A stretch of 64,000 nt of DNA from an uncultured bacterium (GCA_949297305.1 CASFSG010000025.1:12574-76573); one strand, 5' to 3'; counted from the stretch's first letter, positions 18,283 to 18,432 are shown. Translations and numbers: made by a program. The notes: generated from the letters alone by a model not told the origin.

Positions 18283-18306
18283 CGTCTCACTATCGGTTAA
18301 ATACGC

Positions 18307-18432
18307 CTAAGCTCGAATATGCCTATCGGTATCGCTAATTGACGATAAGTTATTATTGTGAGGAATAAGACAAAAACTTAACGAAATAATTTGAATTAAA
18401 AATAATATAAAATTTGCTTTTTTATTTTTCAT
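18307..18432 (-). other. detached signal-peptide/lipobox fragment (41 codons then TAG) in frame with the 740-aa ORF
   Basis: Hand translation from ATG 18430-18432: MKNKKANFILFLIQIISLSFCLIPHNNNLSSISDTDRHIRA, then TAG at 18307-18309, then AYLTDSET, then the ATG at 18282. The distance 18432-18282 is 150 nt, so the frame is the same. Confidence 0.75.

Follow-up and report, generated by a model that had tools for sequence, protein, structure and literature searches.

A young nonsense allele in a predicted secreted papain-like peptidase cassette of an uncultured low-GC bacterium

The window analysed here, that is, the whole stretch of 64,000 nucleotides, has a G+C content of about 32% and, read with the standard bacterial code, yields a dense array of long ORFs. 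Its host appears to be a low-GC, standard-code gut bacterium (Bacilli, 'Mollicutes-like'), as judged solely from the taxa that carry homologues of the gene described below. These are uncultured Bacilli, 'Mollicutes', Anaeroplasmataceae and MAGs labelled Erysipelotrichaceae from gut and rumen.

On the minus strand of the window, an ATG codon (18430-18432) is followed by 41 sense codons MKNKKANFILFLIQIISLSFCLIPHNNNLSSISDTDRHIRA and then by the amber codon TAG at codon 42 (18307-18309). The 41-codon fragment (18310-18432, minus strand) includes the start codon, a signal peptide and a linker, and coincides with residues 1-41 of the intact 796-aa protein P0121 (100% identity). The TAG is followed by eight codons encoding AYLTDSET (18283-18306, minus strand), a portion of the family-conserved segment that follows the signal peptide, and by a second ATG (18280-18282). 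From the latter starts the body, a still open frame of 740 codons ending at 16060 (16060-18282, minus strand) and encoding a multidomain protein similar to secreted peptidases. The two ATG codons are 150 nt apart and share one frame, so the layout proposed in the initial annotation, with an in-frame amber codon parting the signal peptide from a 740-aa body, is confirmed on the minus strand.

A search with the 740-aa body as the query yielded 146 relatives, the full-length ones having 770-810 aa. In the latter, the signal peptide at the N-terminus leads into a conserved segment, for example ...ANAYLGDxxTDxLFNxL.... In the intact homologues this segment has the general form A-x-A-[YH]-L-x-D-x-x-T, and the window sequence IRA*AYLTDSETMTLFNTL aligns with it, the stop occupying the position where relatives carry Asn, Glu or His. 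Since the codons on both sides of the TAG align with a conserved segment of intact homologues, the 41-codon and 740-codon pieces constitute one gene.

The signal peptide has the positively charged n-region MKNKK and the hydrophobic region ANFILFLIQIISLSF expected of a lipoprotein, followed by Cys21. The complete lipobox announced by the initial annotation could not be upheld. The window sequence is L-S-F-C with a non-canonical Phe at position -1, and the pattern [LVI][ASTVI][GAS]C is not conserved among the orthologues, as judged by eye. By the same criterion, signal regions of the homologues mostly lack Cys and look like ordinary SPase-I signals, and the family signal peptides have no conserved Cys. 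Thus the peptidase lipobox seems doubtful.

The region upstream of the peptidase start (18433-18799) lies within a 517-nt stretch that contains no credible gene, although the source annotation has a 34-aa ORF there. About 270 nt of this upstream region have no counterpart in the sister species. A scan for promoter and terminator consensus sequences was uninformative, as it found fewer promoter-like sites than in shuffled sequence.

The body is predicted to start with a papain-like (clan CA) domain (17473-18282, minus strand), as indicated by invariant Cys and His residues, family matches and Foldseek. Cys41 (18160-18162; body numbering here and below) and His211 are invariant in 58-63 aligned homologues; also invariant are His228 in the same domain and Cys587 in the C-terminal domain. 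The middle part is a candidate beta-sandwich of the CBM32/CBM51-like, galactose-binding-like type (16603-17100, minus strand), with approximate boundaries derived from the secondary structure of the model. The C-terminal domain (16063-16560, minus strand) is of the DUF7689 type, as follows from the alignment of homologues and family matches, and contains an invariant Cys (NCYSYA) and the motif DYHWYRQNSDGTWSHKPG.

The window protein itself matches no Pfam family at E<=0.01. Peptidase_C39_2 (PF13529) matches 16 of 58 homologues at this threshold, and DUF7689 matches five. A more distant relative, P0116, passes the Peptidase_C10 threshold (29.3 vs. the cut-off of 26). The NCBIfam model Mplas_Cys_pep, "putative cysteine peptidase" (NF045837), matches residues 83-312 of P0121 with E=3e-6, the score being 27.2 bits vs. 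the cut-off of 45. The window protein reaches none of the curated thresholds of PF13529, PF01640 and NF045837. Searches of PDB by sequence, both with the single protein and with a profile, produced nothing useful.

The AF2 model of the body has a mean pLDDT of 89. Whole-chain Foldseek matches are dominated by beta-sandwiches of the CBM32/CBM51 type, corresponding to the middle domain. Since the search was swamped by these matches, the N-terminal domain (the first 280 residues) was modelled separately (pLDDT 90.8, pTM 0.90). Its matches in PDB are Alr0975, interpain A, SpeB, the C39 domain of PCAT1, IdeS and staphopain, all of the clan CA type. The Foldseek probabilities are 0.99-1.0, but the E-values are only about 2e-3, and the TM-scores are 0.4-0.54.

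In several relatives the C-terminal domain is swapped for another one: matrixin (PF00413) in P0066-P0074 and P0091, and trypsin (PF00089) in P0102 and P0112-P0119, the conserved middle region being retained in both groups. This swapping suggests a modular "protease-delivery" architecture. From the models and family matches, the protein is predicted to be a modular peptidase of the papain-like type, secreted and belonging to an uncharacterised family.

The next gene begins 4 nt past the peptidase stop and encodes a small lipoprotein, 149 aa when intact. In the window it is also interrupted. Its beginning (16021-16056, minus strand) encodes MKKILLLILPL and ends with TAA at codon 12 (16021-16023), where sister strains have TTA (Leu). 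The remaining 136 codons (15607-16017, minus strand) contain a canonical lipobox V-S-S-C just past the stop, and the whole reads MKKILLLILPL-TAA-AMSVSSCNHL. TTA (Leu12) and an intact 149-aa lipoprotein were found in L002, L061, L062 and L063, whereas TAA is present in the window and in the contigs L001 and L004. With only 4 nt between the peptidase stop and the start of this gene, translational coupling of the two is probable.

The third gene (15102-15617, minus strand) encodes an intact 171-aa lipoprotein with the lipobox L-S-S-C. It overlaps the end of the 149-aa gene and is its paralogue, the two proteins being 29% identical. A frameshift between the 136-aa and 171-aa ORFs was considered and ruled out: the ORFs belong to two paralogous lipoprotein genes that overlap, and each of the two is called in every strain.

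Homologues of the small lipoproteins are encoded directly downstream of the peptidase gene in six loci (L005, L006, L010, L019, L023 and L034). Thus the peptidase-lipoprotein cassette is conserved; its chromosomal location is not. In the rumen MAG locus L010 (7257-8919) the small lipoprotein gene is present downstream of the peptidase gene as a tandem triplet. When the 149-aa lipoprotein was used as the query of a word-based homologue search, only near-identical sequences were retrieved. At the level of a guess, this lipoprotein could be an inhibitor, a partner or an anchor of the peptidase.

The entire window was scanned for genes split by a single stop, and the peptidase gene and the 149-aa lipoprotein gene were the only ones with an orphaned signal peptide. 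Both stops come early, within the initial 5-8% of the respective gene, and have an in-frame ATG after them. For random hits this is a little unexpected, although there are only two cases.

An intact allele of the peptidase gene exists in the same species. The 90%-identity cluster of the body contains four sequences, and one of them is P0121, a 796-aa protein that begins with MKNKKANFILFLIQIISLSFCLIPHNNNLSSISDTDRHIRAEAHLTDSETMTLFNTL. Its contig L002 (ENA ERZ16268179, 426 kb) aligns with the window over 14.4 kb at 98.46% identity, and the genes are arranged in the same order. The initial annotation had suggested looking for a sense codon in sister strains. At the position of the stop, the L002 DNA has GAG (Glu42) within an uninterrupted 796-aa ORF with the same N-terminus as in the window; thus a disabling lesion in the window is set against an intact orthologous allele. 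The alignment and the table of variable sites place the change, G>T of the Glu codon, at window position 18309, so that the lesion is indeed a substitution and not a homopolymer frameshift. The sense codon is ancestral. Two codons past the TAG, codon 44 is TAT in the window and CAT in the sister strain.

The TAG allele is not restricted to the window. TAG together with the linked TAT was found in L001 (ERZ16268138, scaffold_6), L003 (ERZ16268194) and, from another study, L004 (ERZ17292902, a k87_ contig), and a further contig of 5-10 kb also carries TAG. This makes at least four assemblies besides the window, which come from different samples and two studies and follow two contig-naming styles (scaffold_N and k87_N). 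The 41-aa fragment is called as an ORF on three contigs. Between the window and L001 there are 7 differences in 10,496 positions, and the window continues beyond the end of the L001 contig; thus it represents yet another assembly. Its presence in several independent assemblies shows that the TAG allele is real. The 34-nt sequence across the TAG or GAG codon had no match among JGI metagenome contigs.

In four samples the contig either starts within the peptidase gene or ceases to be homologous there (L003 at 1921-3565, and L061, L062 and L063 at their starts). The break points in this group map to window positions of approximately 16457, 16960, 16931 and 16804. L003 runs on into unrelated DNA with an adh_short gene on the other strand, which results in a chimeric 650-aa call. 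These breaks could reflect strain heterogeneity that disrupts assemblies, or a real rearrangement.

In other species the gene is usually intact. Among 21 species-representative homologues, 18 have an open frame that joins a hydrophobic N-terminal leader of the signal type to the body. The orthologues in L020 (853-3076) and L025 (4866-7203) are frameshifted, and the one in L034 (4845-6035) has an internal deletion of roughly 400 aa. Either inactivation of the peptidase family recurs in other species, or these three MAGs hold assembly errors. A scan of genome contigs for peptidase loci found none more than 48% identical at the protein level.

The sister species represented by L060, L064 and L066 (83-91% nucleotide identity in the flanks) has no peptidase gene at all. 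The gene order there is UPF0154, 149-aa lipoprotein, 171-aa lipoprotein, plsY, with both lipoprotein genes intact and at the same chromosomal site (L060, 4242-4360; L064, 1859-1975; L066; compared with window positions 16057-18778). About 70 nt upstream of the ATG at 18432 are homologous to the spacer between the UPF0154 and lipoprotein genes of the sister species. The absence may be due to a deletion in the sister species or an insertion in the species of the window. Judging by these loci, the peptidase gene seems to be dispensable in the relatives.

The TAG allele is young. The synonymous divergence between the window and L002 is 0.062 in flanking housekeeping genes (128 of 2075 sites), 0.006 in the peptidase gene (3 of 470 sites) and 0 in the 149-aa lipoprotein gene (0 of 86 sites). 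Thus the divergence in the cassette (window 15600-18432, L002 6001-8844) is approximately ten-fold lower than in the flanking housekeeping genes, which suggests a recent recombination or sweep of the cassette within the species. Since the cassette is so much less diverged than its flanks, it appears that the TAG and GAG alleles split very recently or that the locus was recently recombined between strains.

Over 2.4 kb, the TAG and intact alleles differ by 12 substitutions (three synonymous and nine nonsynonymous, one of the latter being the stop itself) and by an in-frame deletion of 18 nt. Of all single-base changes possible in the 740-codon body, 5.7% produce a stop; hence, with 11 substitutions, 0.62 new stops are expected and the probability of observing none is 0.53. 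For comparison, the mean open run in random sequence of the window composition is 14 codons. The initial annotation took the open 740-codon frame to mean that the lesion is either very recent or the body is still expressed. The former is supported. The latter does not follow, as with so few substitutions the frame would have stayed open with probability 0.53, and thus the open frame is no evidence of expression.

Some of the changes affect conserved positions. The 18-nt deletion in the TAG lineage (at 17472/17473, minus strand) removes YHSSNG, an instance of the family motif Y-x-S-x-x-G that is present in every aligned homologue. Body codon 566 is TGT (Cys; 16585-16587, minus strand), where sister strains have GGT (Gly) and 51 of 57 homologues also have Gly. 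A further change, Leu329Pro, occurs at a position where homologues carry Ile, Leu or Val. In the 3' half of the gene, L061-L063 agree with L002 against the window, L001 and L004 at every covered variable site, and therefore all changes that can be polarised in this half fall on the TAG lineage. L003 carries the TAG but is otherwise L002-like in the body, yielding a stepwise series from L002 through L003 and L004 to the window and L001. On the other hand, L003 could be a chimeric contig.

The pN/pS ratio between the TAG and intact alleles is 0.74, calculated from only 12 changes. For well-diverged pairs of intact orthologues it is 0.12-0.25, and for the very close intact pair L017/L018 it is 0.67. 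The rate test is thus underpowered, and relaxed constraint on the body in the TAG lineage is suggested by the identity of the changed residues rather than by the rates.

Taken together, these observations very probably describe a young loss-of-function allele of an accessory cassette encoding a secreted papain-like peptidase, that is, ordinary early pseudogenisation. In one circulating lineage of strains, GAG was replaced by TAG at codon 42 of the approximately 796-aa peptidase gene. Ribosomes that start at the native ATG would terminate after 41 residues, and the exported protein would no longer be made. In this lineage the co-operonic 149-aa lipoprotein gene has its own early stop, TAA in place of TTA at codon 12. 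The body of 740 codons would still be open only because there has been too little time for a second frame-breaking hit, and in the TAG lineage it is already gathering changes at conserved positions. We infer that no functional product is made from the TAG allele, and that in this lineage the cassette is either dispensable or its loss is favoured. The initial annotation had named further lesions in close relatives as the mark of plain pseudogene decay, and this is largely what is observed: the TAA in the adjacent gene, the YHSSNG deletion, the Gly-to-Cys replacement, the absence of the gene from the sister species and its breakage in three species.

A point against plain decay is the persistence of the TAG/TAA lineage in several samples. 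One possibility, which we consider unlikely but worth keeping in mind, is that the same event was adaptive, the early stops being favoured by removal of a secreted protease and a surface lipoprotein. The gain might be, for example, escape from host antibody or phage, or saving of cost. Such selected loss of export would agree with nonsense codons having arisen in two neighbouring genes of the cassette (at codon 42 of 796 and codon 12 of 149), with the lack of any other evident single-stop-split gene in the 64-kb window, with the occurrence of the lineage in several samples from two studies, and with the recurrent loss of the peptidase in relatives. On the other hand, two or more stops among about 15 substitutions would arise with a probability of approximately 0.21 under neutrality, given 5.7% nonsense changes, and the partner of a dead gene is expected to decay neutrally. 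Moreover, no parallel independent nonsense alleles were seen, and two stops are too few to establish a positional bias.

Ordinary early pseudogenisation must also be weighed against restart of translation. In this scenario, which is quite improbable, initiation at the ATG 18280-18282 yields a functional, signal-less, cytoplasmic 740-aa body, and the lipoprotein is likewise produced from an ATG one or two codons past its TAA. After termination, bacterial ribosomes can scan over a distance above 40 nt, resuming translation at the first start codon with a Shine-Dalgarno-like sequence before it (PMC5972666, a review that cites Adhin & van Duin 1990 and Yamamoto et al. 2016 on restart after early nonsense codons). 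The candidate ATG of the peptidase gene, 24 nt (8 codons) past the TAG, lies within this radius, and the body is still open. The reinitiation proposed in the initial annotation is thus mechanistically possible; what weakens it is the Shine-Dalgarno context and the signal-less product. Many genes in the window are preceded by GGAGG or AGGAG and others by no such box, and the sequence before the ATG 18280 is the weak GTGAGAC. Both ATGs are already present in the intact allele and so did not arise for restart. All intact homologues examined encode a hydrophobic leader continuous with the body, from which an extracytoplasmic function of the peptidase follows. Finally, a conserved motif and a near-invariant Gly have since disappeared from the TAG lineage, and the open frame is accounted for by the youth of the allele. 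A low-level product of restart or readthrough may be considered possible but unsupported.

An even less probable variant, to which we give very little credence, is that the paired stops constitute a heritable "export-off" state. Restart would then maintain cytoplasmic versions of the proteins, or single-base reversion would toggle surface exposure under pressure from the host or phage. If this were true, the persistence of the lineage across samples would reflect selection.

It is extremely improbable that the full-length protein is still exported owing to readthrough or suppression of the TAG, with a near-cognate or suppressor tRNA decoding it at a useful frequency. Nothing specific speaks for it beyond the shared frame and the open downstream frame. 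The 57 ORF ends tallied in the window are 42 TAA, 11 TGA and four TAG, and reading through the four TAG ends adds only 1-11 codons; one of these ORFs abuts efp. Hence TAG is an ordinary terminator here. The stop is not conserved among orthologues: the sister strain has GAG, the 18 intact species-level homologues are open at this position, and Glu, Asn or His is encoded there in every intact relative. An amber suppressor would also leave the TAA of the neighbouring gene unread. A tRNA and Rfam scan of the 64-kb window found no tRNA and no Rfam family, and thus no suppressor or recoding element in it. Restoration of the exported form by readthrough, as considered in the initial annotation, is therefore unsupported.

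Two more general mechanisms were also considered. A change of the genetic code is ruled out, as TAA, TGA and TAG all terminate ORFs and long ORFs are densely packed under table 11. Phase variation is not supported, as both lesions are single transversions in non-repetitive sequence, with no hypermutable switch such as a simple-sequence repeat or an invertible element at the site.

Finally, the probability that the true genome has GAG and the TAG is a sequencing or assembly artefact is negligible: although the window derives from a metagenome-assembled genome, an assembly error is ruled out by the independent assemblies that share the TAG and the linked TAT (at least four others, from different samples and two studies), that differ from the window elsewhere and that, where they reach the next gene (L001 and L004; L003 ends before it), carry its TAA as well.

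For annotation, this means that the 41-aa, 740-aa and 136-aa calls represent pieces of two genes that sister strains retain intact, and a pseudogene or allelic-knockout flag is appropriate for each of them. The cassette occurs in three states, being intact or doubly knocked out within one species and lacking the peptidase gene in the sister species. Since the locus may be intact, doubly knocked out or absent, the function of the cassette appears to be dispensable, possibly related to interaction with the host. The three states could be tracked by strain-resolved metagenomics. More generally, an uncharacterised cassette of a secreted multidomain papain-like peptidase and small lipoproteins is widespread in uncultured Bacilli of the gut and rumen. 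The locus has no bearing on the biology of recoding, readthrough or restart unless expression shows otherwise.

Several known systems resemble this locus in part. As in programmed readthrough or recoding, e.g. UAG decoding as pyrrolysine, an in-frame UAG lies inside a coding frame. However, here the stop lacks conservation, TAG serves as an ordinary terminator in the window, and no recoding element was found there. The case is similar to restart after early nonsense codons in having an in-frame ATG 24 nt past the stop, inside the reported scanning radius (PMC5972666), and differs from it in the weak Shine-Dalgarno-like sequence and in the product, which would have no export signal.

The predicted protein shares the Cys/His pair, the predicted papain-like fold and the signal peptide with secreted peptidases of clan CA from Gram-positive bacteria, such as families C10 (SpeB, interpain A), C39-like, C47 (staphopain) and C66 (IdeS). 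Unlike these, it is below the Pfam and NCBIfam cut-offs, is much larger, and has an additional beta-sandwich and a second Cys-containing domain, DUF7689. In the staphopain-staphostatin and SpeB-Spi systems a small gene is located directly downstream of the peptidase gene. The peptidase gene of the window is also immediately followed by small genes; these encode lipoproteins, for which a role as inhibitors is hypothetical.

The closest analogy is with strain-specific unitary pseudogenes that arise by a single nonsense substitution, an early stage of gene loss in host-associated bacteria. As in the latter, one disabling point mutation is set against an intact conspecific allele while the rest of the ORF is open, further lesions are starting to accumulate, and related lineages either lack the gene or have it in broken form. 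What distinguishes the present locus is the second early nonsense codon in the adjacent co-operonic gene, with both stops in the signal-peptide regions.
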